Origin: Escherichia coli
GTDB taxonomy: Bacteria; Pseudomonadota; Gammaproteobacteria; Enterobacterales; Enterobacteriaceae
NCBI RefSeq assembly: GCF_041886205.1
Contig: NZ_CP169029.1
Length of the DNA stretch: 64,000 nucleotides
Strand: one strand, 5' to 3'
Shown here: in pieces, positions 429-21,695 of the stretch
How the letters are laid out: the number at the start of each line of letters is the position of its first letter
How positions within the stretch are numbered: the stretch's first letter is position 1
The notes under the pieces: model-generated
The model's input: only the letters and a program-made list of their open reading frames with translations
What the model was told of the DNA's origin: nothing
Databases searched by the model: none
Program-made: the position numbers and the translations under genes

Positions 429-1736
429 CTATCTCTGCCCAAACAGGTTAACGACATTGTTTTCCTGCTGTTGCTGGTGGTTATTCACCCGAGACTCCCA
501 GATCTCGAGAGCCTTACGCTTTTCAACCAGGTAATCGTAACGATCGTAGTGTTTAGAACTCACATCCTGTAGAGCATGGTTCTGAATGCGGTCACGCAGG
601 TCTTTAGCAATACCCGCTTCGCCCATCAGGGTCTTACAGGTACGACGAATATCACGCGCAATAAAAGATGGGCTCAACGCAAAGTGTTGCCGGTAATAAA
701 TGATGGCTTGTGCAAAGCTGTCTGTGCGTAGATGCTGTTCCGGTTTAATACGCTGCGGGAAGATGTAAGGACTCTGACTATGATTCTCAGCTTTCAACTT
801 TTCGAGTATCTCAATGGCTGACTCAGTCAAAGGCACCAGATGATCCCTTTTATTTTTCGACACATCCGCCACTATCAATAACGTTTTTTCTTCCCAGTTA
901 ACGGCATCCCAACGGCTGGAAACCAGTTCATGAGGCCGCTGGCCACCCGTATAGACACACAAGTTAAGCAATTGGCTGATTAACGGGCCGACCTTTGGTG
1001 CTTTAGGGAAATCCCCCATCAGTTGCTGCAACTCATCCAGCTTCAGCCAGTTTGTCCCTGCCTTCTCCGCTGCAGATTGTTTGGGTATGACACTCACTGG
1101 GTTCATTTGAAGCCCAAACATCACGTTCTGCTGGTGGTTTGCCGGATCGTTGTCAGCCTTCAACCCATAATTGAATGCTGCCATCAGATAAGAGCGAACA
1201 CGATTTGCTTCAACTGATGCGCCACGTTTAATAATGGTGGCCAGAATTTGTTTGATATGAGCGGGGATAACGTCACGCGCTTTCGTCGCTTTAGGTATAA
1301 ATGGATAGGTTTCTTTTTCCAGCCGGTACAAAACCTGTTGCCAGGTGCGTTTACCGTCTTCACGCATTTTGGTGGTGTAACCCAAAATGAGTTGCTCAAT
1401 GCTGCCTTTGAGCTGGTCTTCACGTTGTTGTTGTTCGGCAGAGAAAAGCTGCTCTGCGATTTCAGCTTTGGGGTCTTTCCCTTCTTTAAGAAGACCCGCA
1501 TGTTCTTTACATTGCTGTCTTGCCTGCGCGAGTGACAACTCTGGGAAACGGCCAAGCAGAATGAATTGCCGTTTTCCTTGCCAAAAATAACGATAGTAAA
1601 ATACTCGCTGACCCGATGGCTCAACTTTCACCCCTAATCGCCCTGCCCCACGCTCACCACTTTTATCCCATTCATAATAAGCAGTAGTCTTCGGCTTCAA
1701 GCCACTAATCATTGAGACAGTTAAATTATCAGCCAT
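429..1736 (-). CDS. int: Tyrosine recombinase / phage integrase, P4 family (start probably Met at 1736; longest ORF extends to 1838)
   Basis: N-terminal arm-binding-like segment (FYYRYFWQGKRQFILLGRFPELSLAQARQQ) and C-terminal catalytic region ending HYDRYDY with conserved R/H/R/Y pattern. Confidence 0.8.
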   Translation of the reverse strand: MADNLTVSMISGLKPKTTAYYEWDKSGERGAGRLGVKVEPSGQRVFYYRYFWQGKRQFILLGRFPELSLAQARQQCKEHAGLLKEGKDPKAEIAEQLFSAEQQQREDQLKGSIEQLILGYTTKMREDGKRTWQQVLYRLEKETYPFIPKATKARDVIPAHIKQILATIIKRGASVEANRVRSYLMAAFNYGLKADNDPANHQQNVMFGLQMNPVSVIPKQSAAEKAGTNWLKLDELQQLMGDFPKAPKVGPLISQLLNLCVYTGGQRPHELVSSRWDAVNWEEKTLLIVADVSKNKRDHLVPLTESAIEILEKLKAENHSQSPYIFPQRIKPEQHLRTDSFAQAIIYYRQHFALSPSFIARDIRRTCKTLMGEAGIAKDLRDRIQNHALQDVSSKHYDRYDYLVEKRKALEIWESRVNNHQQQQENNVVNLFGQR

Positions 1737-1930
1737 AGTATTTTTCAGTCCTTTGTTCGTTACGTCACCCAGTCTGATTCTGGGTGACGTAGTGGGTGAC
1801 GTAAGGATGATACTGAAGGTAAAAACGCAGAACAACATGAAACAACAACCAGCAAATAACCTACTGTTATTTATTAAATTTAATCTAACGTGAAAAAAGA
1901 TGCAAAATCATGAAACATGGATTTCATATG

Positions 1931-2731: not shown

Positions 2732-4081
2732 ATGTTAGTTAGTAAAAGCAACGAATTTAACACTAGCGCAGTTTTGGCTAGCAGGAATTATAATGAAAAC
2801 AATTCTTCCAACCCCATGGGGCTACTAGCTTATAGTATTTTAAATTTAATTTGTAAGGAAGCTGCCTCAGGGACGTACAACGGTGCTATTGAAATTTTAC
2901 AAAAAATGATGTCTGAATGTAAATATCAAGAAGGCAACGCCTTTGTCATTATGGGATCTGGAGAACAATTAAAACGTATTAAATATGATGTTGATGAAAA
3001 TAACTTAAAAGTATTCAACGTACACTTTAATAATAATGAAGAGTTAGTTACTGATGGTGAGCCTGACGTAGTATGTTTAAGCAAGCAGGAGTGGGAAAAT
3101 CTTCTCATTAAATTAAAACCGGAGATTAAAGAAAATGTGTTTTCTGAAAATAACAAATCATCGAGAGAAAATAATGTTGATCAGTATGTTCAATCCGCTA
3201 AAAGAAATGAACAGGCCCTTTTCGATAATATAATAAAAAGTGATTTTCATGTTGCTTCACTTCAGCCAGGTAGTACGCGTAGTGTTATTTCAGAAACGCC
3301 ACGAAATGTCTGTATGGAACCACGTAATTCCTATGAAACCAAAATAGATGAGATTTCATCTTTGTCAGAGTCAAAGGAACACTCCATAGATATTCAAGAA
3401 AAAACAGATGCGTTTGTGAATGAGTTCAAGGGGATATTATTTGATAAAAATGGAACGTCTTCAGAGTTTCTACTTAATTTTTATGAATGTTGCTATGAGT
3501 TTTTACCAAGAGCGCAGCCTCAGGATAAAATCGATAGCTATAATTCAGCACTGCAAGCTTTTTCCATCTTTTGTTCATCTACGTTGACACATAATAATAT
3601 AGGCTTTGATTTCAAATTATTTCCAGAAGTCAAGCTGTCTAGAGAACATCTTGAAACGGTATTCAAATACAAAAATGGCGATGATGTCCGGGAGATAGCC
3701 AAAATTAACATTACTCTCCAAAAAGAAGAGGGTGGTTTATATAATTTACGTGGATTAGATTTTAAGGGATGCTTCTTTTCTGGACAGAACTTCAGTAACT
3801 ATGATATTCAATATGTGAACTGGGGAACGTCATTGTTTGATCTTGATACTCCATGTATTTTTAATGCGCCTGCTTACAACAAGAGTAATGAAAAATCATT
3901 AGAACGCGTCAGCGAAAACGGTTTAAGTGGAGTCTTGTCTGATCGTAATAAAAAAATAAAACTCATCACGGGCGTGGCACCATTCGATGATATTTTATTT
4001 ATGGATGACGACTTTGATGATAGTTCCTCTGAGGATGATCCCGTTGAGAATAGTCCTGTTGTGACTAGTCCCCTTGTATAA
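2732..4081 (+). CDS. AT-rich hypothetical protein, ypjC-like, with pentapeptide-repeat-like segment near C-terminus
   Basis: 449-aa ORF, low GC, Asn/Ser-rich; segment NLRGLDFKGCFFSGQNFSNYDIQYVNW resembles pentapeptide repeats; position matches ypjC of K-12. Confidence 0.55.
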   Translation: MLVSKSNEFNTSAVLASRNYNENNSSNPMGLLAYSILNLICKEAASGTYNGAIEILQKMMSECKYQEGNAFVIMGSGEQLKRIKYDVDENNLKVFNVHFNNNEELVTDGEPDVVCLSKQEWENLLIKLKPEIKENVFSENNKSSRENNVDQYVQSAKRNEQALFDNIIKSDFHVASLQPGSTRSVISETPRNVCMEPRNSYETKIDEISSLSESKEHSIDIQEKTDAFVNEFKGILFDKNGTSSEFLLNFYECCYEFLPRAQPQDKIDSYNSALQAFSIFCSSTLTHNNIGFDFKLFPEVKLSREHLETVFKYKNGDDVREIAKINITLQKEEGGLYNLRGLDFKGCFFSGQNFSNYDIQYVNWGTSLFDLDTPCIFNAPAYNKSNEKSLERVSENGLSGVLSDRNKKIKLITGVAPFDDILFMDDDFDDSSSEDDPVENSPVVTSPLV

Positions 4082-4680: not shown

Positions 4681-5007
4681 TTTATGTGAGCAGAAGATAT
4701 TCATCAGAAACGATTATGTAAATCATTTTATTTTGCCGACTGCCTGATTGTCGAAAGAAAAGAATACGCCCGGGTTTCCTGAATAGATTGACTTTTTTAT
4801 CCAACCACACTTCAGCGCACTGCGTTTAAAAAATGCCTCATTCTTATGCGGAATATCATCATTTCATCATGATGTCTTTGATGAGCGGTGAACACAATAC
4901 ACTTGCGCTGTCTCTTCAGGATGAATCCCCTGGTCTGGTGCCTGTGGGCTGATGTTGCAGCAAAGCTAAGGTCGCTTAAACGCTACTCAGTATTCACTTT
5001 TCAGAGG

Positions 5008-8000
5008 ATGAAATTTATGAACAGGACCAGTCCCTATTATTTTCGCCGCTCAGTACTTTCCTTATTGATATCTGCCCTGATATATGCTCCGCCCGGGATG
5101 GCGGCCTTTACTACTAATGTTATTGGTGTGGTAAATGATGAGACTGTAGATGGCAACCAACGAGTAGATGAACGAGGTACAACAAATAACACTCATATTA
5201 TCAACCATGGCCAGCAGAGTGTTTATGGCGGAGTATCTAATGGAAGTATTATTGAATCGGGTGGATATCAAGATGTTGGAAGGAATAACAATTATATGGG
5301 GCAGTCTAATAATACAACCATTAACGGAGGAAGACAGACAATTCATGACGGGGGCATTTCCACCGGTACGATAATCGACAGTGGCAATCAGGACGTTTAT
5401 ACAGGTGGTATCAGCAATGGAACGACAATTAAGGGTGGTAATTCACACATAAGTGGGGGGACTGCGAATGGAACAATCATTGATGGTGGCAGCCAACGAG
5501 TAACAACGCAGGGGCATGTTGACAGTACAACGATAAATAAGTCTGGCTCTCAGGACATCACGCAAGGAAGTCTGGCGACGAACACAATCATAAATGGTGG
5601 ACGACAGTATGTTGAACAGAGCACAGTAGGAACAACCACCATTAAAAATGGCGGTGAGCAAAGAGTATATGAAAGCCATGCGCTGGACACGACGATTGAA
5701 GGTGGAACTCAGTCTCTGAATAATAAGTCAACGGCAAAAAATACTCAGATCTATTCTGGTGGTACGCAAATTGTTGATAACACCAGCACCTCGGATGTTA
5801 TTGAAGTTTATTCCGGTGGCGTGCTTGATGTTAGTGGTGGTACGGCAACAAATGTTACCCAGCACGATGGTGCAATTTTAAAAACAAACACTAACGGTAC
5901 GACGGTGAACGGTACGAATAGTGAAGGTGCATTCTCCATCCACAATCACGTGGCAGACAATGTGTTGCTGGAAAACGGTGGTCATTTAGACATAAACGCA
6001 TATGGTTCGGCAAACAAGACTATTATCAAAGATAAAGGAACAATGTCAGTTTTAACCAATGCTAAAGCTGATGCGACCCGAATAGATAACGGCGGGGTAA
6101 TGGATGTTGCCGGAAACGCGACCAATACCATAATTAATGGTGGCACACAGAATATTAATAATTATGGCATAGCCACGGGAACCAATATCAACAGCGGAAC
6201 GCAAAATATCAAGAGCGGCGGGAAAGCTGACACGACAATTATATCCTCCGGGAGCCGGCAGGTTGTTGAGAAAGATGGTACGGCAACTGGCAGCAATATT
6301 AGCGCCGGAGGCTCGCTGATTGTCTATACCGGCGGTATTGCACATGGGGTTAACCAGGAGACGGGCAGTGCTTTAGTTGCCAACACGGGTGCAGGGACTG
6401 ATATCGAAGGATACAACAAGCTCTCTCACTTCACTATTACCGGAGGGGAGGCTAATTATGTTGTGCTGGAAAATACCGGCGAACTGACGGTAGTGGCTAA
6501 AACCTCGGCGAAAAATACTACCATTGATACTGGCGGTAAGCTGATTGTCCAGAAGGAGGCTAAAACAGATAGCACCAGACTTAATAATGGCGGCGTTCTG
6601 GAGGTTCAGGACGGTGGTGAGGCTAAGCATGTTGAGCAACAATCCGGCGGCGCATTAATTGCTTCCACGACCTCCGGAACACTTATCGAAGGAACCAACA
6701 GTTATGGTGATGCTTTCTACATCAGGAATTCAGAAGCTAAAAATGTAGTGCTGGAAAACGCTGGCTCATTAACAGTCGTCACTGGTTCCCGGGCAGTTGA
6801 TACGATTATTAATGCCAATGGCAAAATGGATGTTTATGGAAAAGATGTTGGCACTGTACTTAATAGTGCTGGCACCCAAACAATATATGCCAGTGCCACT
6901 TCTGATAAAGCAAATATCAAAGGTGGCAAGCAAACGGTATATGGTTTAGCCACTGAAGCAAATATCGAAAGTGGTGAACAAATTGTTGATGGTGGGTCAA
7001 CAGAGAAAACACACATCAATGGTGGCACGCAAATCGTTCAGAATTATGGTAAGGCAATCAATACCGATATCGTCTCTGGCCTACAACAAATTATGGCAAA
7101 CGGGACAGCGGAAGGTTCCATTATTAATGGGGGTTCACAGGTAGTTAATGAGGGCGGTCTGGCTGAAAACTCGGTGCTTAATGACGGCGGCACACTCGAT
7201 GTGCGGGAGAAAGGCAGCGCAACGGGGATACAGCAGAGTAGCCAGGGCGCTTTGGTTGCAACCACCAGGGCGACGCGGGTCACAGGAACACGCGCGGATG
7301 GCGTCGCGTTCAGCATCGAGCAGGGTGCGGCGAACAATATCCTGCTGGCAAATGGCGGCGTGTTAACCGTGGAGTCAGACACCTCTTCTGACAAAACACA
7401 GGTCAATATGGGCGGACGGGAGATCGTCAAAACAAAAGCCACTGCGACAGGCACGACGCTCACCGGCGGTGAACAAATTGTCGAGGGTGTGGCGAATGAG
7501 ACAACAATTAACGACGGCGGAATACAAACAGTTTCAGCTAACGGAGAGGCAATAAAAACAAAGATCAATGAAGGCGGTACGCTGACAGTCAACGATAATG
7601 GCAAAGCGACAGATATCGTCCAGAACAGCGGTGCCGCTCTCCAGACGAGCACGGCTAACGGTATTGAAATCAGCGGTACTCACCAGTACGGTACTTTTTC
7701 CATTTCCGGCAATTTAGCGACCAATATGTTGCTGGAAAATGGCGGTAATTTATTGGTATTAGCAGGTACCGAAGCTCGCGACTCCACGGTTGGCAAGGGT
7801 GGGGCAATGCAAAACCTGGGTCAGGACTCCGCCACAAAGGTTAACTCTGGCGGGCAATATACCCTTGGGCGGTCAAAAGATGAGTTTCAGGCTCTGGCCC
7901 GGGCAGAAGATCTCCAGGTCGCTGGCGGTACGGCAATCGTCTACGCAGGTACGCTGGCGGATGCATCGGTCAGTGGCGCGACAGGAAGCCTGTCGTTAAT

Positions 8001-9597
8001 GACGCCACGGGATAATGTTACGCCAGTTAAACTCGAAGGGGCGGTCCGGATTACCGATAGCGCGACATTGACTCTGGGAAATGGCGTCGATACCACGCTT
8101 GCCGACCTGACGGCTGCCAGCCGGGGCAGTGTCTGGCTTAACAGCAATAATTCCTGTGCAGGTACCAGCAACTGCGAATATAGAGTAAACAGTTTGCTAC
8201 TCAACGACGGTGATGTTTATTTGTCAGCACAAACAGCAGCGCCTGCCACAACTAACGGTATCTACAATACGCTGACAACCAATGAACTTTCCGGTAGCGG
8301 TAATTTCTACCTGCATACCAACGTTGCAGGCTCCCGGGGCGATCAACTGGTCGTCAACAACAACGCCACTGGTAATTTTAAAATCTTTGTTCAGGATACC
8401 GGCGTCAGCCCACAGTCTGACGACGCGATGACGCTGGTGAAAACAGGGGGAGGGGATGCTTCGTTTACGCTGGGCAATACCGGCGGTTTCGTTGATCTTG
8501 GGACCTATGAGTATGTCCTGAAAAGTGACGGCAACAGCAACTGGAACCTGACCAATGATGTCAAACCCAACCCGGACCCCATCCCAAATCCAAAGCCAGA
8601 CCCAAAACCCGATCCAAAGCCAGACCCAAATCCAAAACCAGACCCTACTCCCGATCCAACGCCGACACCCGTTCCGGAGAAACGCATTACGCCTTCTACG
8701 GCAGCCGTACTCAATATGGCAGCAACATTACCGTTGGTATTTGATGCTGAGCTAAACAGTATTCGCGAGCGGTTGAACATAATGAAAGCGAGTCCACACA
8801 ACAATAATGTCTGGGGGGCGACGTATAACACCCGTAATAATGTCACCACCGATGCGGGTGCCGGGTTTGAGCAGACGCTGACCGGAATGACAGTGGGGAT
8901 CGACAGCCGTAATGATATTCCTGAAGGAATTACCACGCTAGGCGCTTTTATGGGCTATTCCCATTCACATATCGGTTTTGATCGCGGAGGACATGGCAGT
9001 GTGGGCAGTTATTCTCTGGGCGGCTATGCCAGTTGGGAACATGAAAGTGGTTTCTATCTGGACGGTGTCGTGAAGCTGAACCGTTTTAAAAGTAACGTAG
9101 CAGGTAAAATGAGCAGCGGTGGAGCCGCCAATGGCAGTTACCACAGCAACGGGCTGGGCGGTCACATTGAAACCGGGATGCGATTTACCGATGGTAACTG
9201 GAACCTGACGCCGTATGCATCGTTAACGGGGTTCACCGCTGATAACCCCGAATATCATTTATCCAATGGCATGGAATCGAAATCAGTCGATACCCGCAGT
9301 ATATATCGTGAACTGGGTGCAACGCTGAGTTACAACATGCGTCTGGGGAACGGTATGGAAGTTGAGCCGTGGCTGAAGGCGGCTGTGCGCAAAGAATTTG
9401 TCGATGATAACCGGGTGAAGGTGAATAATGACGGTAATTTCGTCAATGATTTGTCGGGCAGACGTGGAATATACCAGGCAGGTATTAAAGCCTCATTCAG
9501 TAGTACGTTAAGCGGGCATCTCGGGGTGGGGTATAGCCATGGTGCCGGTGTGGAATCACCGTGGAACGCGGTGGCTGGTGTGAACTGGTCGTTCTGA
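5008..9597 (+). CDS. ypjA: Large adhesin-like autotransporter (ypjA-like); start assigned to the signal-peptide Met, ORF opens at 4888
   Basis: Signal peptide (MKFMNRTSPYYFRRSVLSLLISALIYAPPGMAA), long passenger of about 19-residue Gly/Thr/Asn-rich repeats, Pro-Asp-Lys linker, C-terminal beta-barrel ending VNWSF. Confidence 0.85.
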   Translation: MKFMNRTSPYYFRRSVLSLLISALIYAPPGMAAFTTNVIGVVNDETVDGNQRVDERGTTNNTHIINHGQQSVYGGVSNGSIIESGGYQDVGRNNNYMGQSNNTTINGGRQTIHDGGISTGTIIDSGNQDVYTGGISNGTTIKGGNSHISGGTANGTIIDGGSQRVTTQGHVDSTTINKSGSQDITQGSLATNTIINGGRQYVEQSTVGTTTIKNGGEQRVYESHALDTTIEGGTQSLNNKSTAKNTQIYSGGTQIVDNTSTSDVIEVYSGGVLDVSGGTATNVTQHDGAILKTNTNGTTVNGTNSEGAFSIHNHVADNVLLENGGHLDINAYGSANKTIIKDKGTMSVLTNAKADATRIDNGGVMDVAGNATNTIINGGTQNINNYGIATGTNINSGTQNIKSGGKADTTIISSGSRQVVEKDGTATGSNISAGGSLIVYTGGIAHGVNQETGSALVANTGAGTDIEGYNKLSHFTITGGEANYVVLENTGELTVVAKTSAKNTTIDTGGKLIVQKEAKTDSTRLNNGGVLEVQDGGEAKHVEQQSGGALIASTTSGTLIEGTNSYGDAFYIRNSEAKNVVLENAGSLTVVTGSRAVDTIINANGKMDVYGKDVGTVLNSAGTQTIYASATSDKANIKGGKQTVYGLATEANIESGEQIVDGGSTEKTHINGGTQIVQNYGKAINTDIVSGLQQIMANGTAEGSIINGGSQVVNEGGLAENSVLNDGGTLDVREKGSATGIQQSSQGALVATTRATRVTGTRADGVAFSIEQGAANNILLANGGVLTVESDTSSDKTQVNMGGREIVKTKATATGTTLTGGEQIVEGVANETTINDGGIQTVSANGEAIKTKINEGGTLTVNDNGKATDIVQNSGAALQTSTANGIEISGTHQYGTFSISGNLATNMLLENGGNLLVLAGTEARDSTVGKGGAMQNLGQDSATKVNSGGQYTLGRSKDEFQALARAEDLQVAGGTAIVYAGTLADASVSGATGSLSLMTPRDNVTPVKLEGAVRITDSATLTLGNGVDTTLADLTAASRGSVWLNSNNSCAGTSNCEYRVNSLLLNDGDVYLSAQTAAPATTNGIYNTLTTNELSGSGNFYLHTNVAGSRGDQLVVNNNATGNFKIFVQDTGVSPQSDDAMTLVKTGGGDASFTLGNTGGFVDLGTYEYVLKSDGNSNWNLTNDVKPNPDPIPNPKPDPKPDPKPDPNPKPDPTPDPTPTPVPEKRITPSTAAVLNMAATLPLVFDAELNSIRERLNIMKASPHNNNVWGATYNTRNNVTTDAGAGFEQTLTGMTVGIDSRNDIPEGITTLGAFMGYSHSHIGFDRGGHGSVGSYSLGGYASWEHESGFYLDGVVKLNRFKSNVAGKMSSGGAANGSYHSNGLGGHIETGMRFTDGNWNLTPYASLTGFTADNPEYHLSNGMESKSVDTRSIYRELGATLSYNMRLGNGMEVEPWLKAAVRKEFVDDNRVKVNNDGNFVNDLSGRRGIYQAGIKASFSSTLSGHLGVGYSHGAGVESPWNAVAGVNWSF

Positions 9598-10070: not shown

Positions 10071-10079
10071 CCGGGTAGG

Positions 10080-12413
10080 TTATGTCGCGGTGGTTTCGTC
10101 GCACCGGGGCAGCCAGTCGGCGTTGCTTTCCTCCCTGAGCGCAAGGTTCGTCTGCATCCCCTGATTTGTTCGCCGCCTGGCGTAATTCAGCCCGTACTCT
10201 TTCAGCATCGATGACAGCCCTTTGCCGAACATGGTCAGGCTGAGGGTGTTCTTGTAGCCGTGCGCCTCCATGTAAACCAGATAGGCGTGATACAGGTACA
10301 GGCGCGGCTGTCGCGGGATGATATTCGCATTCCCCATGTACATACCGTCAGGCTCGGGCAGCGCCTCCAGATAGCCACAAAAATCGAATGTCGGGTCAGC
10401 GTCGCGCTTGATGCTGAGTGCCTCGTCGGAGTTCTGCTGCGACTGGAGCAGTGTGCGCGCGGTCATCGGGTCGCTGAACGTCTGCATAAGCTGACGCACG
10501 ATGACGGCCAGCTCGCGGGCAATTTTATCTTTCAGCTTCGGGTCACGCTCCTCCGGGGCAATCTGTTCCGGGAAGTGCATTATCACCCGGCGACGCGACA
10601 CGCCGCCGCTGCGGTCGGTGAAGCGCATCGGATTGTTGTTTACGGCCAGTATCACCGCCGGAATATGGGTGGAGTACGCATCGCGGTATTTCGGGTCAAC
10701 CGAGACCGCATCCCCGCCGGTGATGGCCTTGAGTCCTGCCCCGTCACCGCTCCATTTCTCCTGGTCAGGCAGACGTATCAGCGAGAAGCCAATCAGCGCC
10801 GCGCGCTCGCGGGGGGATTCCAGCGTTTCGATAGTCGCTGACGTGGCGTTATCTTCCCCGGCGAGCATGGTCGCTATTTCGGCCAGAATACTTTTCCCGC
10901 TGCCACCGGGACCGGTCACTTCGAGGAAGAGCTGCCAGTCGTAGCGGTTCGCCAGCACCATAAACAGCGCGGCGAGTATCACGTCACGTTTATCGGCACG
11001 CGAACCGGCGGCGCGGTCGAGCCAGCGCCAGAAATTCGGCGCGTGCGTCTCCAGCGTTTCCCCCTCCACCGGCGGGGTGAAATCCACGTCGCACAGGGTG
11101 CGCAGCCAGTGCGTTTTGCTGTGCGGGCTGAATATACCGGTACTGGTATCAAGCACGCCGTTGCGAAAGCCAATCAGCCGCCGTGGCGGGGCATCCTGCT
11201 GCGGAATAATCAGTTTCAGGGTGTCCACCACCGAGGCAATTTTCCCCGACGAAAACGGGGCGCGCAGACGCTGGAACAGCCCGGCCACGTCGCGCGCAAA
11301 GTCTGACGGCGGAATGATTTTCCATATACCGGCTTCATAGCGGGACAGGAGCTGCCCGTTCGCATCCACCGCCAGCGCTTCGCCGTAATGCTCATGCACC
11401 CGCATGGCTTTCTCACTGGTGCTCATGGCGGTAAATTCCGCCTCGCTCATGGTAGAGAAAGGGCTTTCAGCCGGTGGCCGGATGGCGTCATACATGGCTT
11501 TACGCGTGGCCTCCCCACCGTGCTGTGTATACGCATCATTCCAGTCACCGAACACCGGCGGCAGGGCGACCACGCCCTCACAGGACTCTGCGGCCGCAGA
11601 CGCTTTGGTCTGGCCGTCGCCGTTAAGGTCACGGTCGGCGGCAATGACAATCCGGCAGGCCGGGTATTTGTGACGGGCAAGGCTCGCCAGAGAAAGGAGG
11701 TTCACCGACGACAGCGCCACCATGACGGTTTCGCCGGTCAGGTGATGCACGGTGAGCGCGGTCGCGTAGCCCTCCGCTATCCACAGCCGTTTTCCCGCCT
11801 CTTTTTTCCCGTCGAGAATATGACATGTCCCTTTTACCTGCCCCCCTTTCAGGGTGCGCTTGAGACCGTCCGCGTTAATGAGCTGGACGTTAACCAGTGC
11901 GCCGCTATCGTCATACAGCGGGACAACCACATCCCCGGCACGGTACGTCACACCGCCGGTTTTGTGCATGGCCGTCAGTACCTGACATTCCCGGCCGGGA
12001 AAGCCCTTGCGGGTGAGGTAGGCGTTGCCGGTGGCCGGTTGGGTTTTCTCCATCAGTCTGGCGGCCAGCGCGGCCGCCGCTTTGCGGTCGGCCTCCGTTT
12101 CAGCGTCTGCGGCCGCAGTCACCGCCGGGGATACCGGAGGCAGGTTGCCGGTCACGGCGTTCACCTTCCCGGCCGCCTCTGACGGGGTCACGCCGAACAC
12201 TTTCTCAACCAGTTTCAGACCGTCCCCCGCGCCGCACTGGTTACAGAACCACGTCCCGCGTCCCTCCTTATCGTCAAAGCGAAAGCGGTCGGAGCCGCCA
12301 CACACCGGACAGGCCTGATGACGGTTTTTGATGACCGTTACCCCCAGCGCCGGGAGAATGCGCGGCCAGTGGCCGCACGCCTGTTTCACGGTGTCCGTTA
12401 CGTTCATTTTCAT
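10080..12413 (-). CDS. P4 alpha-like primase-helicase (777 aa)
   Basis: N-terminal zinc-binding cysteine pairs (CPVCGG ... CNQCG), central primase region, Walker A (GPGGSGKS) helicase domain; size identical to P4 alpha. Confidence 0.9.
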   Translation of the reverse strand: MKMNVTDTVKQACGHWPRILPALGVTVIKNRHQACPVCGGSDRFRFDDKEGRGTWFCNQCGAGDGLKLVEKVFGVTPSEAAGKVNAVTGNLPPVSPAVTAAADAETEADRKAAAALAARLMEKTQPATGNAYLTRKGFPGRECQVLTAMHKTGGVTYRAGDVVVPLYDDSGALVNVQLINADGLKRTLKGGQVKGTCHILDGKKEAGKRLWIAEGYATALTVHHLTGETVMVALSSVNLLSLASLARHKYPACRIVIAADRDLNGDGQTKASAAAESCEGVVALPPVFGDWNDAYTQHGGEATRKAMYDAIRPPAESPFSTMSEAEFTAMSTSEKAMRVHEHYGEALAVDANGQLLSRYEAGIWKIIPPSDFARDVAGLFQRLRAPFSSGKIASVVDTLKLIIPQQDAPPRRLIGFRNGVLDTSTGIFSPHSKTHWLRTLCDVDFTPPVEGETLETHAPNFWRWLDRAAGSRADKRDVILAALFMVLANRYDWQLFLEVTGPGGSGKSILAEIATMLAGEDNATSATIETLESPRERAALIGFSLIRLPDQEKWSGDGAGLKAITGGDAVSVDPKYRDAYSTHIPAVILAVNNNPMRFTDRSGGVSRRRVIMHFPEQIAPEERDPKLKDKIARELAVIVRQLMQTFSDPMTARTLLQSQQNSDEALSIKRDADPTFDFCGYLEALPEPDGMYMGNANIIPRQPRLYLYHAYLVYMEAHGYKNTLSLTMFGKGLSSMLKEYGLNYARRRTNQGMQTNLALREESNADWLPRCDETTAT

Positions 12414-12424
12414 GGTGTTCTCCC

Positions 12425-13523: not shown

Positions 13524-13815
13524 GGTGCTCCCCTCCGTTTCCCGACGTCGTGGCGAGAAAGTCACGGCACAGGCCTTTGGCTTTCAGCTCTTCCAGGACG
13601 TAGCTGACGTCCTCATGGATATAACTAAAAATCTGCGGCAGGTATAGCTGGTGTAAACCGTTCAGCTCACGGCGCAGCAAATCTCCACCGATGAACTGCG
13701 AGACGGCGCTGGCGCGATTGAGTTTATGGTACGCCTCAATGCTGAGGTGTTCCTGCATGGGGTTAAGGTCATCACGACGCGCTGAGATGGTCTGAGGGGT
13801 GTTTTTATTATGCAT
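13516..13815 (-). CDS. Small protein (99 aa), position of P4 epsilon
   Basis: In-frame Met inside a longer ORF; overlaps neighbours by 8 nt; position equivalent to epsilon. Confidence 0.45.
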
Positions 13816-14005
13816 GTGACACCTCCACAACCGGCAGACGGGCGGCAAGGGAAAGCACGTATTCCCGGACAAGGGTGCGGCGGGCGGCCAGCTCGTCACC
13901 GGCCACGGTGCGGAGCATACAGATACGGGGTTTACGGTCTGCACGACGGACGGCGGCAAACACAAAGACAAACTGAGGGTGTGACGGGGTGAGGGTCGTA
14001 GCCAT
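13808..14005 (-). CDS. Small protein (65 aa), position of P4 kil/eta
   Basis: AGGAGG 7 nt upstream of ATG at 14005; overlaps downstream gene start. Confidence 0.35.
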
Positions 14006-14403
14006 AAGGCAACCTCCTTCGAGTAGCAAATTATTGCTATCGCCGGAGTTCTCACGCTCAGTGGCGATAGCCCAGACGGGGGTGAGAATACCGGCCTCGA
14101 AGAATACCGGCCAGCCCGAGGGCTGCCCCGCCTGAGCTACCATTGACATGACAGCATGATATGCGATTGCGGACAGGAGACACAAAGTGACGTCTGCACG
14201 ACGATCCGCACACCACGCCATTATCTGGCGCTCTGTGGCGTTAGTTGCGACACAAAAAAAGACGCATGGCGCGTCTGGTGTCGCCTTCGAGTTACTCGGG
14301 TTCTCACGCCCGGTTACCGATTTTGCGGCAACAGCAAAACTGTACCAGGAAACACACAACGGATGCAAGCCAGAAAAAGGGGCTTTGTGAAATCGGCTCT
14401 GAT

Positions 14404-14670
14404 TCATGCGTCGTATTTCCGGTTGCGGTGCGCGACACGTTCTTCCATCCATGCCGTGATTTCAGACTGTAGCCAGGCGACATTTTTACCCCCGAGGGAA
14501 ACCTGCGCCGGGAAAGCGTTACGGGCGATTAAATCGTAGAGCGTGGAGCGGGACAGGCCGCACTGATGAATGACTTCCGGGAGACGTAAAAAACGTTCCT
14601 GAGTCGGGGCTGAAACCGGCATCGGGTGCGCGGCAGTGGGGGACGGTGGTGCTGATGAAACTGTGTGCAT
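14404..14670 (-). CDS. Vis/AlpA-family transcriptional regulator (start may be internal Met at 14622)
   Basis: [28 protein letters not shown] is an AlpA-type HTH; 88 aa as for P4 Vis; divergent from sid. Confidence 0.7.
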
Positions 14671-15218: not shown

Positions 15219-16022
15219 ATGAAACCAGATTTGTTTACCGCAGTAATGAAAACCATCGGCAGCACGCAGGATGAGAACATCCGCACGGCCATTGACAGCG
15301 CACTGGATACCCTTAACGAGAAAGCAAACCAGAACGCAGAGGCCACGATAAATAATGCGCTTGAGGCATTCAGCAAGGCCAAATCCGCGCACACGGAAAA
15401 TATGCTGAAACTGAATGATATTGATGCGGCCATTACCCGCAGTGAGAAAGAGCGTCAGAACGCCCTGAATGAAAGTGCCGAAGCGGAACAGAACTGGCGT
15501 ACCCGTTTTCGCGAACTGCGCGGCATGATGACCCCGGAACTGAAAGCCGAACACAGTCAGCGAGTGGCCGGTCGGGAGCTGGCGGAGGAATTCACCGCCC
15601 TGATTGATGAGCTCAACGATGATAAAGCCAGTACCATGCTGGCCGCCTGTACATCAGGAGATAAGTACGTCGGCACGCATTTTACGGTGTTCTCTGCCTA
15701 CTCCCGGAATGAGTGGGCGACCGTGATGAAAGACATCCCTCCCTCACTGGTGCGCGCATTTGCGTTACGTCTGCGTGAACTCGAAATGAAAGGAGAAGAA
15801 CACCCTCACAACGTTCTCATTCAGGAACTGGGGGAGAATGTACTGGCGCAAAGCAGGTACTACACATTCAACATGGCGCAGGAGCCGGTAATTTCAAAAA
15901 TTGGGCTTCACCGTCCGGCACTCACCGGCGTGGATATGAAACTCTATAAAAGCCCGGTTCTCAGAATGGCGCGGGCTAAAGAGCTGGCACAGAAGAAAAA
16001 ATCGCGGGGGGTTAAGCCATGA
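15219..16022 (+). CDS. sid: Sid-like capsid size-determination (external scaffold) protein
   Basis: Similarity to P4 Sid (NWRTRFRELRGMMTPELKAEHSQRVAGRELAEEF); first gene of sid-delta-psu. Confidence 0.75.
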   Translation: MKPDLFTAVMKTIGSTQDENIRTAIDSALDTLNEKANQNAEATINNALEAFSKAKSAHTENMLKLNDIDAAITRSEKERQNALNESAEAEQNWRTRFRELRGMMTPELKAEHSQRVAGRELAEEFTALIDELNDDKASTMLAACTSGDKYVGTHFTVFSAYSRNEWATVMKDIPPSLVRAFALRLRELEMKGEEHPHNVLIQELGENVLAQSRYYTFNMAQEPVISKIGLHRPALTGVDMKLYKSPVLRMARAKELAQKKKSRGVKP

Positions 16023-16261
16023 TGCGCTGTCCGTACTGCAAACAGGCTGCCCATGTCCGTACCAGCCGTTACCTGTCGGATAACGTCAAACAGAGCTACC
16101 TCCAGTGCGTGAATGTCTTTTGCTCCGCAACCTTTCGCACCACCGAGTCTATCGACGAGGTAATACGGCCACCGGCAGAAGAAAAGCCCGAACCGCCGCA
16201 GACAGTACCAGAAACACCGCCCCGAATTCTGGACTGCGCCCGGTCATCGCTGCGCCACTGA
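16019..16261 (+). CDS. Delta/Ogr-type zinc-finger late transcription activator
   Basis: MMRCPYCKQAAHVRTSRYLSDNVKQSYLQCVNVFCSATF with C-x2-C ... C-x4-C pattern typical of P2 Ogr/P4 Delta; 4-nt overlap with sid. Confidence 0.85.
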   Translation: MMRCPYCKQAAHVRTSRYLSDNVKQSYLQCVNVFCSATFRTTESIDEVIRPPAEEKPEPPQTVPETPPRILDCARSSLRH

Positions 16262-16277: not shown

Positions 16278-16853
16278 ATGGCACGAGCACTACTGGAACA
16301 GGCCTTTGAAACCTGTCAGAAGAATAAATCGGACTGGGTGAGCAGCAAGTCAGCACTGGCGCGGGCTGAAATGGCGCTGAAAGAGCTGGAGCTGACCTGC
16401 ACCCGTTATGAACCGGAGGCCGCACAGGCGCTGCGGGATGATATTGACCTGAAAAAATGGGCGGTAAATCAGTCGGCCGGGCAGTACATCCGGTCACATG
16501 AGGCCGTGCAGCGTATCAGTATCCGGCGTCAGCTCCACGCCTTTATGCAGGTAAGCGGCGACGCGCTGGCCGCCGCACTGGCACCGGAATTAATGCATCT
16601 CTGCGAACAACCTGACATTGTCAGAGAACGGGCTCTCGACCGGGCGGCCGCCAGTGTTCGCGAAGCGCTGTCCGTTTATGTAACCCGCGGAGGAAATATT
16701 GATTACGCAGAGGATGATCGCGACATTCTGACAACCATCGGTTTCCGGCCTGACAGAGCATCGAGAGACGACAACCGGGCAAAATATACGCCTGAACAGA
16801 GTCAGATTTTCATGCGCCGACAGGCCGCGCAGACCCGCAAAAAATCCGCATAA
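16278..16853 (+). CDS. psu: Psu-like polarity suppression / capsid decoration protein
   Basis: KWAVNQSAGQYIRSHEAVQRISIRRQL and ALAAALAPEL and DILTTIGFRPD match P4 Psu; 191 aa. Confidence 0.85.
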   Translation: MARALLEQAFETCQKNKSDWVSSKSALARAEMALKELELTCTRYEPEAAQALRDDIDLKKWAVNQSAGQYIRSHEAVQRISIRRQLHAFMQVSGDALAAALAPELMHLCEQPDIVRERALDRAAASVREALSVYVTRGGNIDYAEDDRDILTTIGFRPDRASRDDNRAKYTPEQSQIFMRRQAAQTRKKSA

Positions 16854-17017
16854 AACGCCCCGAAAATACCCGTCTTTTTAATAAAAATAGCCATGCATGC
16901 CTACGCTGCATGGCTTTGCATGCAAAAACCTGAATTTTCCACACCCCGCCGCACCAGCACTGGCGCGGCCTGAGTCCCTTCATGCGCCTGCATTAAAAGT
17001 GCCCCACGAAGCGGGCA

Positions 17018-17036
17018 GGCGTGGCGGGGAGAGCAT
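17018..17036. other. cos-like cohesive-end site
   Basis: GGCGTGGCGGGGAGAGCAT matches 16 of 19 positions of the P2/P4 cohesive end as I recall it; lies after psu as in integrated P4. Confidence 0.45.
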
Positions 17037-17113
17037 TGCGCGCCAAGCGATATATAATTAATTAATGAAGAAGGATAGAATTAACCATATAGCCATAAAA
17101 AAGGATGCGGGTG

Positions 17114-18685
17114 ATGAAGGCGAGTGATATGCAGCACTTATGTAATATAGCCAGAGAGCTTGTTTCTGATGGCAAGTTTGAAAAGGCGTATGAGTTCACG
17201 TTGCAGATTTATAAATCCCTTGACGAAAATATCTTTGGGGATAATTACTATATACTTCTTTATAATATGGCTGCGAATTTTGTTGATATAGGAGGAATGC
17301 AACCGAATAAAGAGGCTTCTCTGCTAGGCTATAACTTAATGAATGAGCACTTTGACTCTTTTTCTAAAATTATGGATGAATCTACGCTCTATTATAACCT
17401 AGCAAACGCAAAGTCAAACTTGGTTGAAAAAGGCAGTGTTTTTAAACAAACGTTTACAACAATTGAGGATATGGTGGATGTAAAAAATTTATACTGGAAG
17501 GCATTTAAATTACTCGGTGATGATAATACTATATATAGCAAAGAACTGAAGGTCAATTTAGCAAACTCACTCAAGCAACAGTTTAGAGTTGTAGAGTCTA
17601 TTTCATATTATGATGATGTTATTTCCTCGGGGGAAGATATACCGCAAGCATGGATTAACAGGTCTGAAGCCTTAATGCTATTGCTGCAACTCTCTGGTTC
17701 TCATACTATAAAGCATATAAGAGAGATTAGACTTGGATATATGAAAGCAATTGAATCAACAGAGATGCCACCGCCATGGAAACCACACTTTCAATCACGT
17801 GCTGAAAAACTCACGGAAGATATAATCGAAATGTCGGGAAAACCATTTTTTGAAAAAGAAGATGAGCTTGATGAAAAACAGACGCTAGAAGAATATAGCA
17901 AACTTAATAATTATCAAAAATTCGTTTTAGATAACCACTTTGTTCTTTCTGAGCATGGGGTGTATTGTCCTTGCGTAGTTGGGGCTAAAGATAACCTAAC
18001 AATATTACCAACACATAATGATGTTTCTGGTGATTTTATTATTCCCATGGAAATGGTTTTGAATAGGCTAAAGTCTGAATATGCTTTGGCAAGGCGCTCG
18101 TTATTCGAGTATGAGTACATGGAGGAAGTTGATGATGTGGCCTGTTATTCAGAGTTGTATAACGATGAAGTTTTAAATGTTGGTGTTGAGAAGATAAGAA
18201 ATGCATTTCGTATATGTTTTGGTGTGTTAGATAAAATAGCTATTGCAATATGTGAGTTATACGATGTTTATCCAGCCAATAAAATAGTGTACTTTGAAAA
18301 TTTTTGGCAATTAAACCAAAATGGGCGAAGGGATAAGTTTGAAGAAATAAAAACTCCAGCTTTACTGGCTTTATATAGTCTAGCTACTGACCTAAATGAT
18401 AGAAAGAATGGTGAATTATCCTTTTATAAGGATTGGAGAAATGATTTGGAACATAATATAGTGATCGTTCATAAAGATTGCGAGCCTTTAGATATATATA
18501 ATTCCTACGGTTACATGAAGAATATTAGGTTGATATCGGAGTCTGATTTTACTAGACATTTTAAAGTGTTATTGCAAATAGTACGCTCAGCAATTTTTCT
18601 TTTTACCTTTATGGTAAGAGAAGAGGGGGGTAAAAGTAACAAGGATTCATTTTTGATATCAAACTCACTAGATTGGAAAATATGA
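17114..18685 (+). CDS. Cargo protein A (523 aa): TPR-like N-terminal half, C-terminal Rx4H HEPN-like motif; function unknown, candidate defence protein
   Basis: AT-rich ORF with AAGGA 8 nt before ATG at 17114 (ORF opens at 17105); helical repeat-like N-terminus; motif WRNDLEHN near C-terminus; lies in the cos/psu-int variable slot. Confidence 0.7.
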   Translation: MKASDMQHLCNIARELVSDGKFEKAYEFTLQIYKSLDENIFGDNYYILLYNMAANFVDIGGMQPNKEASLLGYNLMNEHFDSFSKIMDESTLYYNLANAKSNLVEKGSVFKQTFTTIEDMVDVKNLYWKAFKLLGDDNTIYSKELKVNLANSLKQQFRVVESISYYDDVISSGEDIPQAWINRSEALMLLLQLSGSHTIKHIREIRLGYMKAIESTEMPPPWKPHFQSRAEKLTEDIIEMSGKPFFEKEDELDEKQTLEEYSKLNNYQKFVLDNHFVLSEHGVYCPCVVGAKDNLTILPTHNDVSGDFIIPMEMVLNRLKSEYALARRSLFEYEYMEEVDDVACYSELYNDEVLNVGVEKIRNAFRICFGVLDKIAIAICELYDVYPANKIVYFENFWQLNQNGRRDKFEEIKTPALLALYSLATDLNDRKNGELSFYKDWRNDLEHNIVIVHKDCEPLDIYNSYGYMKNIRLISESDFTRHFKVLLQIVRSAIFLFTFMVREEGGKSNKDSFLISNSLDWKI

Positions 18686-18814
18686 AAACATTACGTTGCA
18701 AGTATATCTTGTATTCGTTCAACTTTGACCTGACACACCTCTGGCACAAAGCCCCAATCTCATAGGCGGTTCTATGCCAGGGGCTGAAAGTCTGTCTCTG
18801 GTAACATACACTTA

Positions 18815-19801
18815 TTATGTTATATTGAGGAAATCTGGGATATTAGCTGGTTCAAGGTCAAAAATATATTTAATGATTCCGGCTTTTAGGTTCTCCTCAA
18901 TTCCTTTCCTGAAATCTAGAATACTTGAGATTGTTGCATCATGTTGTAAATGATGTCGCCAGTGAACATCTTTTTCTCGACTATGAAAAGATAACAATCG
19001 GGTTAGAGCCATATGTGCGAACATTCCTGATTGTTCATCGATTGTATAATGGGCAACCACGTGGGAATCAGAATATGATTCTTTCGTAGAAAGATCCCAA
19101 GAATGAAATAATTGCTGAGCAATTGGTGATAGATCCCTTATTTGTTCATTTCTTCCGTTAGTGAAGTAAACATCATCTATGACGGTATGCCAGTTTTCTT
19201 GTGTCCCTTCATCTGTTTCAATGGTTTCAATAATATTTTCTTTCTTGAAACTTATATGAACACCTGAATTAACTTGTGGAGTGTAGGTGAAGTCACCTAA
19301 AACTTTACTCATTAAGCTATTACGCATTGCATCATTGAAATTAAGATTGAAATTTGTTTTTGCCTTTGTAAATAAATCTAGATCTACCAGGCTCCAAATT
19401 CCATGTCTTCTCCAGGCAATTAAAACGGGCAGCCCTAATAATTGGCCGTAAGCTCTTAATCTGGACACGTAATCTGGACGAAAAGACAAAACATTTCCCA
19501 TGTAAGATTTAACTTCAATCAAAACAGTAGTCTTGCCTGCGCCACGCACATTAAAATTTGCTAGTAAATCTGGAACCTGAAAAGTCTTGTTAGAAGTAGT
19601 TGGATACTGCTGTTGATCCAATTTATGGACTAGGTTGCATTGACCTAGCCAACCACAGATAATCGAAAACTCGTCTTCTAACGGGAGGCCAATATTAAGT
19701 CTATTTACACGTTCAGCGATAGCCTTAGCGTCAGCCTCCCAACCCAGTTGCTCTAGAGATTCATGTATAAGTCTCTCTAAATCTGTCGGCTTATCTTTCA
19801 A
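18815..19801 (-). CDS. Cargo protein B (328 aa): putative PD-(D/E)xK-fold nuclease; function unknown, candidate defence protein
   Basis: AT-rich ORF; VPDLL ... 16 residues ... VLIEVKS fits the PD-(D/E)xK spacing; convergent with protein A. Confidence 0.7.
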   Translation of the reverse strand: MKDKPTDLERLIHESLEQLGWEADAKAIAERVNRLNIGLPLEDEFSIICGWLGQCNLVHKLDQQQYPTTSNKTFQVPDLLANFNVRGAGKTTVLIEVKSYMGNVLSFRPDYVSRLRAYGQLLGLPVLIAWRRHGIWSLVDLDLFTKAKTNFNLNFNDAMRNSLMSKVLGDFTYTPQVNSGVHISFKKENIIETIETDEGTQENWHTVIDDVYFTNGRNEQIRDLSPIAQQLFHSWDLSTKESYSDSHVVAHYTIDEQSGMFAHMALTRLLSFHSREKDVHWRHHLQHDATISSILDFRKGIEENLKAGIIKYIFDLEPANIPDFLNIT

Positions 19802-19960
19802 GGTAGCTCCCTATAGGTTTAGTTCGAACTCAATAAGTTATATGTCATTAACATATTACAAAGTTATGCCATTATCGCTTAAAGCCGATCATCATGTAAG
19901 AATACATTATATCCGTGGCAACGGTTAGTGCTAATTCACAGATATACTGAGCAAAAATTT

Positions 19961-21148
19961 TTAATGATTTACTTTATCTCCCCACCAATCCATCAACTCA
20001 ACTCTTTGAAGTAAATAAGTTGAACGGTTGTAAGCTTTTCGAACTTCATTTTTGTCTGAGTGTGCTAATGCTGCTTCAATAACATCAGAATTAAATCCGG
20101 CTTCATTGAGTGCAGTACTTGCGATGGACCGTAACCCGTGAGCAACTAATTTCCCACCATAACCAATACGCTTAAGTGCGGCATTAGCAGTCTGACTATT
20201 CATTGGTTGCTTAGGGTTATTTCTGCTGGGAAAAACATGTTCACGGTGAGCGCTGATTGGTTTCATCACTTCCAGAATATCTAACGCCTGAGGAGATAGT
20301 GGGACTATGTGCTCACGCTTAGCTTTCATCCGTTCGGCAGGAATTGTCCAGAGCTTTGCATCAAGATCGATCTCTGCCCACCGGGTACTGGAAGCCTCAG
20401 AAGGGCGCACAAGGGTCAGGAGTTGCCATTCGATTAGACAGCGAGTCGGAACAGACAGATTTGACATGACTAAAGAACGCATCAGCTTCGGCAATTCTTC
20501 TGGCCGCAACGTCGGCATGTTTTGCTTTTTGGGCTTCTCAAAGGCCATGCCAACACCGGATGCTGGATTGGCATCAATCAGACCAGTGTTTACGGCATAA
20601 ATCATGATTTCGTTAATGCGCTGCACCAGTCGACGTACAGTCTCAAGCGCCCCACGTGCTTTTATTGGCTCAAGGGCTTCAACCAAAGTTCGGGCTTTGA
20701 TTTGCTGAACGGGGATCTCACCGATGGCAGGGAATACATCTTTCTCCAGTGAACGCCAAATGTCTTTTGCGTAATCAGGGGTAACGCTTTTGCTTTTGAG
20801 ATGGAACCAGTTAGCGGCGACCGTTGAAAAAATACTGTCCAGAGCGATTTGCTGCTGTTCCTCTGCAACTTCGGCCTGAATTTGCGGGTCAATTCCGTTG
20901 GCTAACAAGGCAAGGTAATCCGCTCTTAACCCTCGGGCGTCAGCAAGTGAGAGGGCGGGGAAAGCACCTAGCCCCATCATTGTCCGCTGTTTTGTCGCCG
21001 GACGTTGATAACGGAAACGCCAGAGCTTTTTCCCGCTGGTTTTCACTATCAGGAAAAGGCCATCGCCATCATGCAGCGTTAGATCCTTCTCTAACGCTTT
21101 AGCGCGCAGAACTTCGGTGTTGGTCAGGGGGCGTGTTGTCCGTGCCAC
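19961..21148 (-). CDS. int: P4-family integrase (IntA-like) next to ssrA
   Basis: 395 aa; N-terminal LWRFRYQRPATKQRTMMGLGAFPALSLADAR arm-binding-like domain; catalytic C-terminal domain; immediately downstream of tmRNA 3' end. Confidence 0.9.
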   Translation of the reverse strand: MARTTRPLTNTEVLRAKALEKDLTLHDGDGLFLIVKTSGKKLWRFRYQRPATKQRTMMGLGAFPALSLADARGLRADYLALLANGIDPQIQAEVAEEQQQIALDSIFSTVAANWFHLKSKSVTPDYAKDIWRSLEKDVFPAIGEIPVQQIKARTLVEALEPIKARGALETVRRLVQRINEIMIYAVNTGLIDANPASGVGMAFEKPKKQNMPTLRPEELPKLMRSLVMSNLSVPTRCLIEWQLLTLVRPSEASSTRWAEIDLDAKLWTIPAERMKAKREHIVPLSPQALDILEVMKPISAHREHVFPSRNNPKQPMNSQTANAALKRIGYGGKLVAHGLRSIASTALNEAGFNSDVIEAALAHSDKNEVRKAYNRSTYLLQRVELMDWWGDKVNH

Positions 21149-21167
21149 TGTGGCCGCTCCTTCATGA

Positions 21168-21232
21168 ATTGGTATACGCTTTTAGGTATACATCCTACCG
21201 TATACCTAAACGTATACCAATAATCACCGGAT
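21168..21232. repeat. Cluster of GGTATAC motifs incl. CGTATACCTAAACGTATACCAAT; candidate integrase arm sites between int and ssrA
   Basis: Three or more GTATACC/GGTATAC copies; 23-nt block nearly identical to 9832-9852. Confidence 0.45.
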
Positions 21233-21332: not shown

Positions 21333-21695
21333 TGGTGGAGCTGGCGGGAGTTGAACCCGCGTCCGAAATTCCTACGTCCTCGGTACTACATGCTTAGTCA
21401 GTCTTTACATTCGCTTGCCAGCTGCGGACGGACACGCCACTAACAAACTAGCCTGATTAAGTTTTAACGCTTCAACCCCAGGCAGGGCTTCCACGCGATC
21501 TCTTTTGGGTTTGACCTCTCTTGATCCCCGTCCTAAGAGCGGAGGCTAGGGAGAGAGGGCTCTAAGCAGGTTATTAAGCTGCTAAAGCGTAGTTTTCGTC
21601 GTTTGCGACTATTTTTTGCGGCTTTTTACGAGGCCAACCGCCCCTCGGCATGCACCTTGGGTTTCGCAAATCCCGTCGAATCCAGAATCAGCCCC
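21333..21695 (-). ncRNA. ssrA: tmRNA (SsrA), 363 nt
   Basis: Reverse complement begins GGGGCTGATTCTGGATTCGACGGGATTTGCGAAACC and ends GGTTCAACTCCCGCCAGCTCCACCA; ANDENYALAA tag template region present. Confidence 0.95.

Follow-up and report, generated by a model that had tools for sequence, protein, structure and literature searches.

Positions 17114..18685 (+ strand, stop codon included) of a 64,000-nucleotide stretch of an Escherichia coli genome (contig NZ_CP169029.1, assembly GCF_041886205.1; hereafter the window) encode a 523-residue protein, ORF A, that joins a TPR-like helical-repeat domain to a HEPN domain of the LA2681 family. ORF A occupies the first cargo position of the psu–int hotspot in a P4-like satellite, between cos/psu and int, and this hotspot context makes a role in defence likely. 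The reading that we favour, with moderate confidence, is that ORF A is a phage-triggered abortive-infection RNase acting as a single chain, in which a TPR sensor is connected by a linker to a HEPN effector, and that it constitutes a one-gene hotspot cassette.

A TPR–HEPN protein of the LA2681 family

The gene is intact. Its open reading frame (ORF) runs without interruption, and the strand opposite to it carries stops throughout. The longer version given by the ORF caller (17105..18685, +) spans 526 residues; the ATG at 17114 yields 523 residues, the same length as the three closest homologues (P0001–P0003), and an AGGA stands ~8 nt 5' of this ATG. Besides the ORF list, the translation and a match to the Pfam family PF18733, the gene call is supported by full-length relatives of 510–550 residues, of which there are hundreds.

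An earlier note on this DNA, made from the sequence alone, had read the protein as a TPR-like N-terminal half fused to a C-terminal region with an Rx4H, HEPN-like motif, and had proposed profile searches, structure prediction and fold searches as checks. The four peptides that it quoted are all present (residues 45, 92, 126 and 441). A profile search gave a near full-length match to Pfam HEPN_LA2681 (PF18733), covering residues 310–504 of the protein and positions 8–204 of the 204 of the model (E=3.1e-35, 121.8 bits), and the same family was matched in 40/40 aligned relatives. The short motif from which the note had drawn its HEPN assignment is, taken alone, weak evidence, since shuffled versions of the ORF A protein contain Rx4H in 33% of cases and Rx4-6H in 71%. 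However, R442-N-D-L-E-H447 (18437..18454, +), the predicted catalytic motif, is the sole Rx4-6H in the protein, lies inside the PF18733 match and is conserved in relatives, which makes the motif call credible. The assignment is thus borne out by the domain match and by conservation. Profile searches of ORF A against NCBIfam and PHROGs returned nothing meaningful, and the PDB, queried by sequence with the whole protein or with a C-terminal domain profile, gave 0 matches even at E≤10.

The AlphaFold2 (AF2) model of full-length ORF A, computed from a 40-sequence alignment, is confident, with a predicted local distance difference test score (pLDDT) of 87.4 and a predicted template-modelling score (pTM) of 0.90. 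It displays 14 helices over residues 3–273, an ordered coil over residues 274–308, where block-mean pLDDT is about 78–95, and long helices with a small β-hairpin over residues 309–507. The gene is divided here into a TPR-like helical-repeat domain of about 6–7 repeats (residues 1–273; 17114..17932, +), an ordered non-helical linker defined by AF2 secondary structure and conservation and bearing an LSEHGLYCxC His/Cys cluster (residues 274–308; 17933..18037, +), and the HEPN domain (residues 309–507; 18038..18634, +). Fold searches with the full-length model were swamped by TPR matches and were uninformative on the C-terminal half. For the HEPN fold search we used a second model, of the C-terminal domain only. 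Its best structural matches were the HEPN/MNT-type toxins 8xdj, 5yep and 7ae2, LsoA (5hy3) and RnlA (7aex); Csm6, Csx1, the HEPN domain of sacsin and nucleotidyltransferase-associated HEPN domains were also among the matches. The domain displays the all-alpha, up-down helical bundle of the HEPN fold, with the motif on the conserved helix. No NTPase was matched in Pfam by ORF A or its 40 relatives, and the AF2 model consists of TPR, linker and HEPN only. Taken together, the hidden Markov model match, the motif, the fold and the TPR fusion establish that ORF A belongs to the LA2681 HEPN family.

This family is large. A word-indexed protein search gave at least 285 matches, the best of them 90%, 84% and 77% identical to ORF A, followed by a plateau at 42–53% that spans at least 89% of the length; homologues in this plateau carry an LA2681-type name, the family being named at NCBI. 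The closest public relative, at 90% identity, is metagenomic. Searched exhaustively, a set of 1.84 billion cluster representatives yielded 632 matches with E≤1e-3, of which 123 had E≤1e-30, and most of them aligned end to end, which indicates that the TPR–HEPN architecture is the norm of the family rather than a local fusion. By these identities, and with no megablast match in complete E. coli genomes, ORF A is a fairly divergent member.

Residue conservation was assessed in an alignment of 40 relatives (42–90% identity) and in a wider one of 50 sequences, reaching down to 22% identity. The pattern RNx[LF]EH is found in 40/40 relatives, and in the wider set R442 and E446 are each kept in 50/50 sequences, H447 in 49/50 and N443 in 48/50, which points to strong constraint on the catalytic-type residues of the family. 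These counts bear on the possibility that the HEPN domain is non-catalytic, serving in ligand binding or as a scaffold, as in sacsin or the C-terminal domain of kanamycin nucleotidyltransferase, with ORF A being a TPR adaptor. Catalysis has indeed been lost in some HEPN families (table in PMC3710099), and the sacsin and nucleotidyltransferase-associated domains are among the structural matches of ORF A. By contrast, practically no variation is seen across the family in the R and H of Rx4H or in the neighbouring N and E, and PMC3710099 separates active from inactive families by that very pattern, with LA2681 entered as 'yes'. We consider a non-catalytic HEPN domain distinctly improbable.

Conservation is unevenly distributed along the protein. 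Among the 40 relatives, the mean majority-residue fraction per column is 0.74 in the HEPN domain, 0.66 in the linker and 0.54 in the TPR half, which would fit a constrained effector combined with a faster-evolving recognition domain. Outside the canonical description of HEPN domains, the LSEHGLYCxC cluster of the linker is nearly invariant (H281 48/50, C285 48/50, C287 49/50), C368 of the HEPN domain (nt 18215–18217) is kept in 44/50 sequences, D373 is invariant, and in the TPR half R158 is invariant and N148, L149 and E161 nearly so. The His/Cys residues (H281, C285 and C287, with C368), D373 and R158 may form a metal (zinc) or redox site, or an inter-domain latch.

An autonomous cassette in the psu–int slot

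The hotspot that holds ORF A is flanked on the left by psu (16278..16853, +; PHROG 6366 'polarity suppression Psu-like', E=6.7e-62) and on the right by a P4-type tyrosine integrase (19961..21148, −; NCBIfam NF007246, E=2e-177, and PHROG 1). A conserved P4 core (…GGCAGGCGTGGCGGGGAGAGCATTGCGCGC) at 16990..17042, shared with the related loci L001 and L029, marks the left edge of the variable slot. From what is known of P2 and P4 we take this core to be cos. The core (…GGCGTGGCGGGGAGAGCATTGCGCGC) ends at 17042, where the AT-rich leader of the ORF A cassette begins. In Table S2 of Rousset 2022, the P4-hotspot clones start with the same type of sequence. The leader (17043..17113, +), which includes its own ribosome-binding site, is delimited by identity to L001 and by the match edges of two other loci, the match of L027 to the window beginning at 17063 and the cos match of L029 ending at 17043. 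It is ~94% identical to L001, and the neighbouring psu-proximal intergenic DNA is far more diverged, indicating that the leader travels together with ORF A. Promoter and terminator scans of the cassette scored no better than shuffled sequence, and the cassette contains no second ORF of note, no small companion ORF and no Rfam match above noise.

Downstream of ORF A, in convergent orientation, a second cassette (18707..19943, −) holds ORF B (18815..19801, −), a 328-residue predicted nuclease of PD-(D/E)xK/Hjc-like type. This description derives from weak Hjc matches, from the residues D78…E96-x-K98 and from the database names 'PDDEXK family nuclease' and 'restriction endonuclease'; PADLOC-DB v2.0.0 matched ORF B with 0 families at E≤1. 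The adjacency raises the question of whether A and B work together as a two-gene system, such as a sensor/RNase paired with a DNase. In L001/L002, another P4-like satellite at a different chromosomal site, the order is Psu–A–B–Int, and both A (P0001) and B are about 90% identical to the copies in the window. By contrast, in L027/L028, elements of the same kind with an 84%-identical A (P0002) and the same type of integrase, A abuts the integrase directly. BLASTN of L027 against the window matches 16852–17068 and 17063–18706, then jumps to 19944–21380; the stretch 18707–19943 is precisely missing, and is therefore a separate insert. In L029, where A is 53% identical, a different gene of 395 residues replaces B. 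Moreover, A and B are convergent and so do not form an operon, B homologues are found without A, and A homologues elsewhere never accompany B. L027, L029 and the B-only contexts largely refute the two-gene system, which we regard as very improbable.

The contexts of B on its own are diverse. Without A, homologues 74–86% identical occur on plasmids, where ars and anti-restriction genes are their neighbours, and in the chromosome of an Acinetobacter. Another homologue, 45% identical and again unaccompanied by A, follows an AAA_15/21 ATPase and a Dam-like methylase in an R-M-like island of Pseudomonas aeruginosa. At 74–90% identity, B homologues are found in Serratia, Yersinia, Kosakonia plasmids, Salinivibrio, Proteus, Acinetobacter and Shewanella, which argues for recent horizontal spread.

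The contexts of A are equally varied. Related elements carry A with B (L001), A alone (L027/L028) or A with another gene (L029), all beside P4-type integrases. Farther afield, homologues of A are found as single-gene cargo: in Budvicia, with an integrase on one side and a resolvase on the other; in a Cellvibrio integrative and conjugative element, flanked by ArdA and a Gp49/HTH toxin–antitoxin pair, with AbiEii and Fic nearby; and in integrase islands, adjacent to toxin–antitoxin genes of SocA type or of Gp49/HTH type. In a Citrobacter braakii island (L003/L004), the A homologue is preceded, across a 12-bp gap, by a gene of 719 residues, a truncated copy of which matches DUF8371. This is the only sampled context with a tightly linked upstream gene, and may be a lineage-specific two-gene variant. 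Across 9 independent contexts no neighbour of A is conserved, and no MNT or RnlB-like antitoxin is found among them. These comparisons indicate that ORF A moves among the variable slots of mobile elements as an autonomous module of one gene.

The distribution of ORF A is sparse. Megablast with the gene gave no match in 5,426 complete E. coli genomes, and neither megablast nor tblastn matched it in GenBank phages. On plasmids, only remote LA2681 proteins of about 23–27% identity were found. A distant relative, with 66% nucleotide identity over the HEPN part, is carried by 25 of the 5,426 genomes and lies, where examined, in P2-like prophages. In E. coli ECONIH5 (L020, 6136–7677), a P2-like prophage carries a family member with the same architecture and motifs as ORF A; it is the only cargo in the P2 hotspot of this prophage, which lies between the portal gene and the replication/DinI genes. 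Of the six IMG/VR loci that hold a relative, three display this P2 slot as well, between the gpA/DinI genes and the portal (L022–L024). The distance from gene to portal varies in these slots, from about 1.0 to 2.2 kb, which suggests different co-cargo. Thus the helper phage P2 and the satellite P4 both carry members of the TPR–HEPN family. The P2-slot members are 42–46% identical to ORF A, and copies in the P2 and P4 slots being only about 45% identical implies no recent exchange between them; a 2026 preprint reports that P2 and P4 rarely exchange defence genes. In one hotspot table of the Rousset 2022 supplement, HEPN_LA2681 is tabulated 21 times; two rows of that table include DinI, as in the P2 slot, and differ in their neighbours (AAA_15/21, KAP NTPase).

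These data also answer whether ORF A could be a housekeeping RNA-processing enzyme that lies near the satellite by chance. Some HEPN enzymes, such as Las1 and Ire1, are RNA-processing factors. The gene itself is absent, at megablast level, from the complete E. coli genomes and even a distant relative is present in only 25 of them; its DNA is of low GC content, its spread over mobile elements is patchy, and it sits inside the satellite between cos and int. The distribution effectively refutes a housekeeping function, to which we give a negligible probability.

The psu–int interval of P4-like satellites has been shown experimentally to be a reservoir of anti-phage systems (Rousset 2022, Cell Host Microbe 30:740, PMC9122126), and HEPN proteins are named there as uncharacterised cargo of the P4 hotspot. 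As in that study, ORF A lies between psu/cos and int, in a slot whose content is swapped among related elements. The earlier note had called ORF A a cargo protein of a defence architecture, and the location in the psu–int hotspot, with relatives in the P2 hotspot and in mobile islands, fits this framing. The family thus occupies two defence hotspots that have been established by experiment.

Proposed mechanism and comparison with known systems

HEPN RNases are metal-independent, and their active site pairs the Rx4-6H motifs of two HEPN domains. If ORF A follows this rule, its single HEPN domain must act within a homodimer or a higher oligomer. TPR solenoids usually bind peptides or proteins, not nucleotides. 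For ORF A we infer an RNase that is activated by dimerization, triggered through its TPR domain and directed against phage. In this model, the protein would be made constitutively in an auto-inhibited state, with the TPR domain and/or the conserved linker cluster restraining it in cis; this would explain why it needs no antitoxin. When a competing phage infects the cell, the TPR domain would bind a protein or peptide that is made by the phage, or a host protein altered by it. Binding would release two HEPN domains or drive their pairing, so that the two R442/H447 motifs build a composite metal-independent RNase site. Cleavage of cellular and/or phage RNA (mRNA, tRNA or rRNA) would then arrest translation and abort the infection, and the clonal population that carries the satellite would be protected.

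The main alternative to defence, in our ranking, is that ORF A serves selfish ends, as a toxin or an addiction module, or that it benefits the satellite, for example by cleaving RNA to manipulate the host or the P2 helper at P4 induction. HEPN domains are common as toxins and the top structural matches of ORF A are HEPN/MNT toxins; the gene resides on mobile elements, and the neighbourhoods of its relatives are rich in toxin–antitoxin genes. However, no cognate antitoxin was found: in the contexts compared there is neither an MNT gene nor any other recurrent partner, and the cassette holds neither a small ORF nor a known RNA. Moreover, the slot is variable and not part of the core, so that P4 does not need ORF A, and the presence of the same family in the hotspot of the P2 helper itself argues against an anti-helper role specific to P4. 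Although this alternative deserves more weight than the others, we consider it unlikely.

How the favoured reading of ORF A, as an abortive-infection RNase, relates to known systems can be judged from shared and divergent features. The closest precedent is the LA2681 family itself, listed in the HEPN table of Anantharaman 2013 (PMC3710099) as 'Rx4-6H conserved: yes' and fused to TPR. ORF A agrees with this listing in its full hidden Markov model match, in the retained Rx4H and in the TPR fusion; it differs in its divergence and in its context, a P4 satellite hotspot, which has gone undiscussed for the family, and not in structure. The TPR–LA2681 fusion has thus been known computationally since 2013, and ORF A is a new divergent member and a good candidate for an anti-phage gene, not a system of a new kind. 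In the DefensePredictor supplement (PMC13092281), an E. coli LA2681 protein is listed as a 'predicted novel defense gene' with a log-odds of 9.1; the invariant peptides of the family are absent from the searched part of the supplement text.

Among HEPN effectors, the HEPN–MNT and RnlA/LsoA toxins share with ORF A the structural match, the type of catalytic motif and the expected outcome of RNA cleavage and growth arrest. Unlike ORF A, which has no antitoxin in the sampled contexts and a 270-residue TPR domain in cis, these toxins need a separate antitoxin (MNT, or RnlB/LsoB). ApeA (Gao et al. 2020), AbiD/AbiF and the CBS–HEPN protein DS-11 are, like ORF A, single polypeptides that combine a HEPN effector with a regulatory domain and require no antitoxin, and in DS-11 mutation of the HEPN catalytic residues abolishes defence (PMC13092281). 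They belong to other HEPN families with other partner domains, and ORF A has no PADLOC match at E≤1. RNase L and Ire1 (KEN-type), and Csm6/Csx1, would resemble ORF A in outline, a sensor domain (ankyrin repeats in RNase L, CARF in Csm6) being joined to a HEPN RNase whose activation depends on pairing. ORF A differs from them in having a TPR sensor and neither a kinase-like nor a CARF domain; only the HEPN fold is shared, and activation by dimerization is presumed for ORF A. Finally, the Avs/STAND sensors use a TPR solenoid as the presumed recognition module, fused to a nuclease-type effector, and TIR–STAND–TPR proteins occur in the P4 hotspot (PMC9122126). In contrast to these, ORF A contains no STAND or other P-loop NTPase, carries its sensor at the N-terminus, in reversed order, and measures 523 residues against the typical >1000. 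We rejected ORF A as the toxin of a toxin–antitoxin system, as ApeA and as STAND/Avs, on the grounds of no antitoxin, no sequence relationship and no NTPase, respectively. It is likewise not one of the P4 systems newly described in the 2026 preprint (Crouga, Bandua, Aernus, Toga, Reve and Hailong), whose domain contents differ.

Several observations weigh against a defence function. ORF A matched 0 families of PADLOC-DB v2.0.0 at E≤1 and none in PHROGs, and in the literature we found no experimental test of an LA2681 protein, the main-text mentions being limited to the 2013 table row. The terms 'HEPN-TPR', 'TPR-HEPN' and 'PF18733' are absent from main texts in the searchable literature. In the Rousset tables, two HEPN candidates cloned from P4/P2 hotspots, pFR83 ('HEPN-TPR') and pFR103 ('Putative HEPN'), are entered only as 'additional tested systems' and not among the validated ones, which shows that a HEPN domain in a hotspot location need not produce a phenotype when the panel of phages is small. 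Neither candidate was a test of the LA2681 family, since both are unrelated in sequence to ORF A. The best BLASTP match of pFR83 to ORF A has E=0.099 over 38 residues, and pFR83, which we read as ApeA-like, has its HEPN domain at the N-terminus, the reverse of the order in ORF A, as judged from the position of its Rx4H. Parts 2 and 3 of Table S2 of Rousset 2022, which comprise all of Table S2B, contain no LA2681 protein.

A broader proposal, which we put forward only tentatively and hold to be possible rather than probable, is that LA2681 TPR–HEPN proteins are a widespread, uncatalogued single-gene anti-phage system used by both P2 and P4. They would be NTPase-free pattern-recognition RNases and a bacterial counterpart of RNase L, in which a phage protein bound directly by the TPR domain brings two HEPN domains together, and in which H281, C285 and C287, possibly with C368, serve as a zinc or redox latch. 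Were ORF A protective, it would be a compact HEPN system of 1.6 kb, encoded by a single gene, free of an antitoxin and without a current PADLOC model, and it would provide the first function for a family of about 630 sequence clusters known only from one row of a table of 2013. The proposed mechanism, if true, would also offer a simple model of a repeat-domain sensor gating a HEPN RNase, as it involves no NTPase and no second-messenger step. Were ORF A not protective, it would merely be an annotated hypothetical protein on a satellite. Independently of this outcome, the window and its relatives reveal, to the base pair, how modules are exchanged in the P4 hotspot, with A alone, A with B or A with another gene, and one family common to the P2 and P4 hotspots.

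The satellite and its chromosomal surroundings

The satellite is integrated at ssrA (tmRNA; 21333..21695, −; ARAGORN). A partial tmRNA copy at ~9608–9761 marks its other end, which gives an element of ~11.6 kb, the size of P4 itself. The flank is that of E. coli at 99.9% identity (ssrA, smpB, ratA, bamE, recN). Profile searches identified an α primase of 777 residues (10080..12413, −) and an Icd-like protein (13808..14452, −), and Sid (15219..16022) and Delta (16019..16261) precede psu. The α–cI–ε region is 76–81% identical to phage P4 in nucleotides. GC content is 34–37% in the DNA of the two cargo genes, against 50–63% around them and ~50% in the E. coli host, and the α primase replication region (10001–13000), at 59–63% GC, exceeds both the host and the cargo. 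The satellite is thus a three-way compositional mosaic.

Outside the satellite, the window contains a second tyrosine integrase (429..1838, −), a YpjCB-family gene (2732..4081) in DNA of 35–37% GC, and an Ag43/AIDA-type autotransporter of 1569 residues (4888..9597) with a PKPDP-coding 12-nt repeat at 8563–8670. The stretch from 429 to 9597 appears to hold the remnants of a CP4-57-type island, and two mobile elements appear to be stacked at ssrA.

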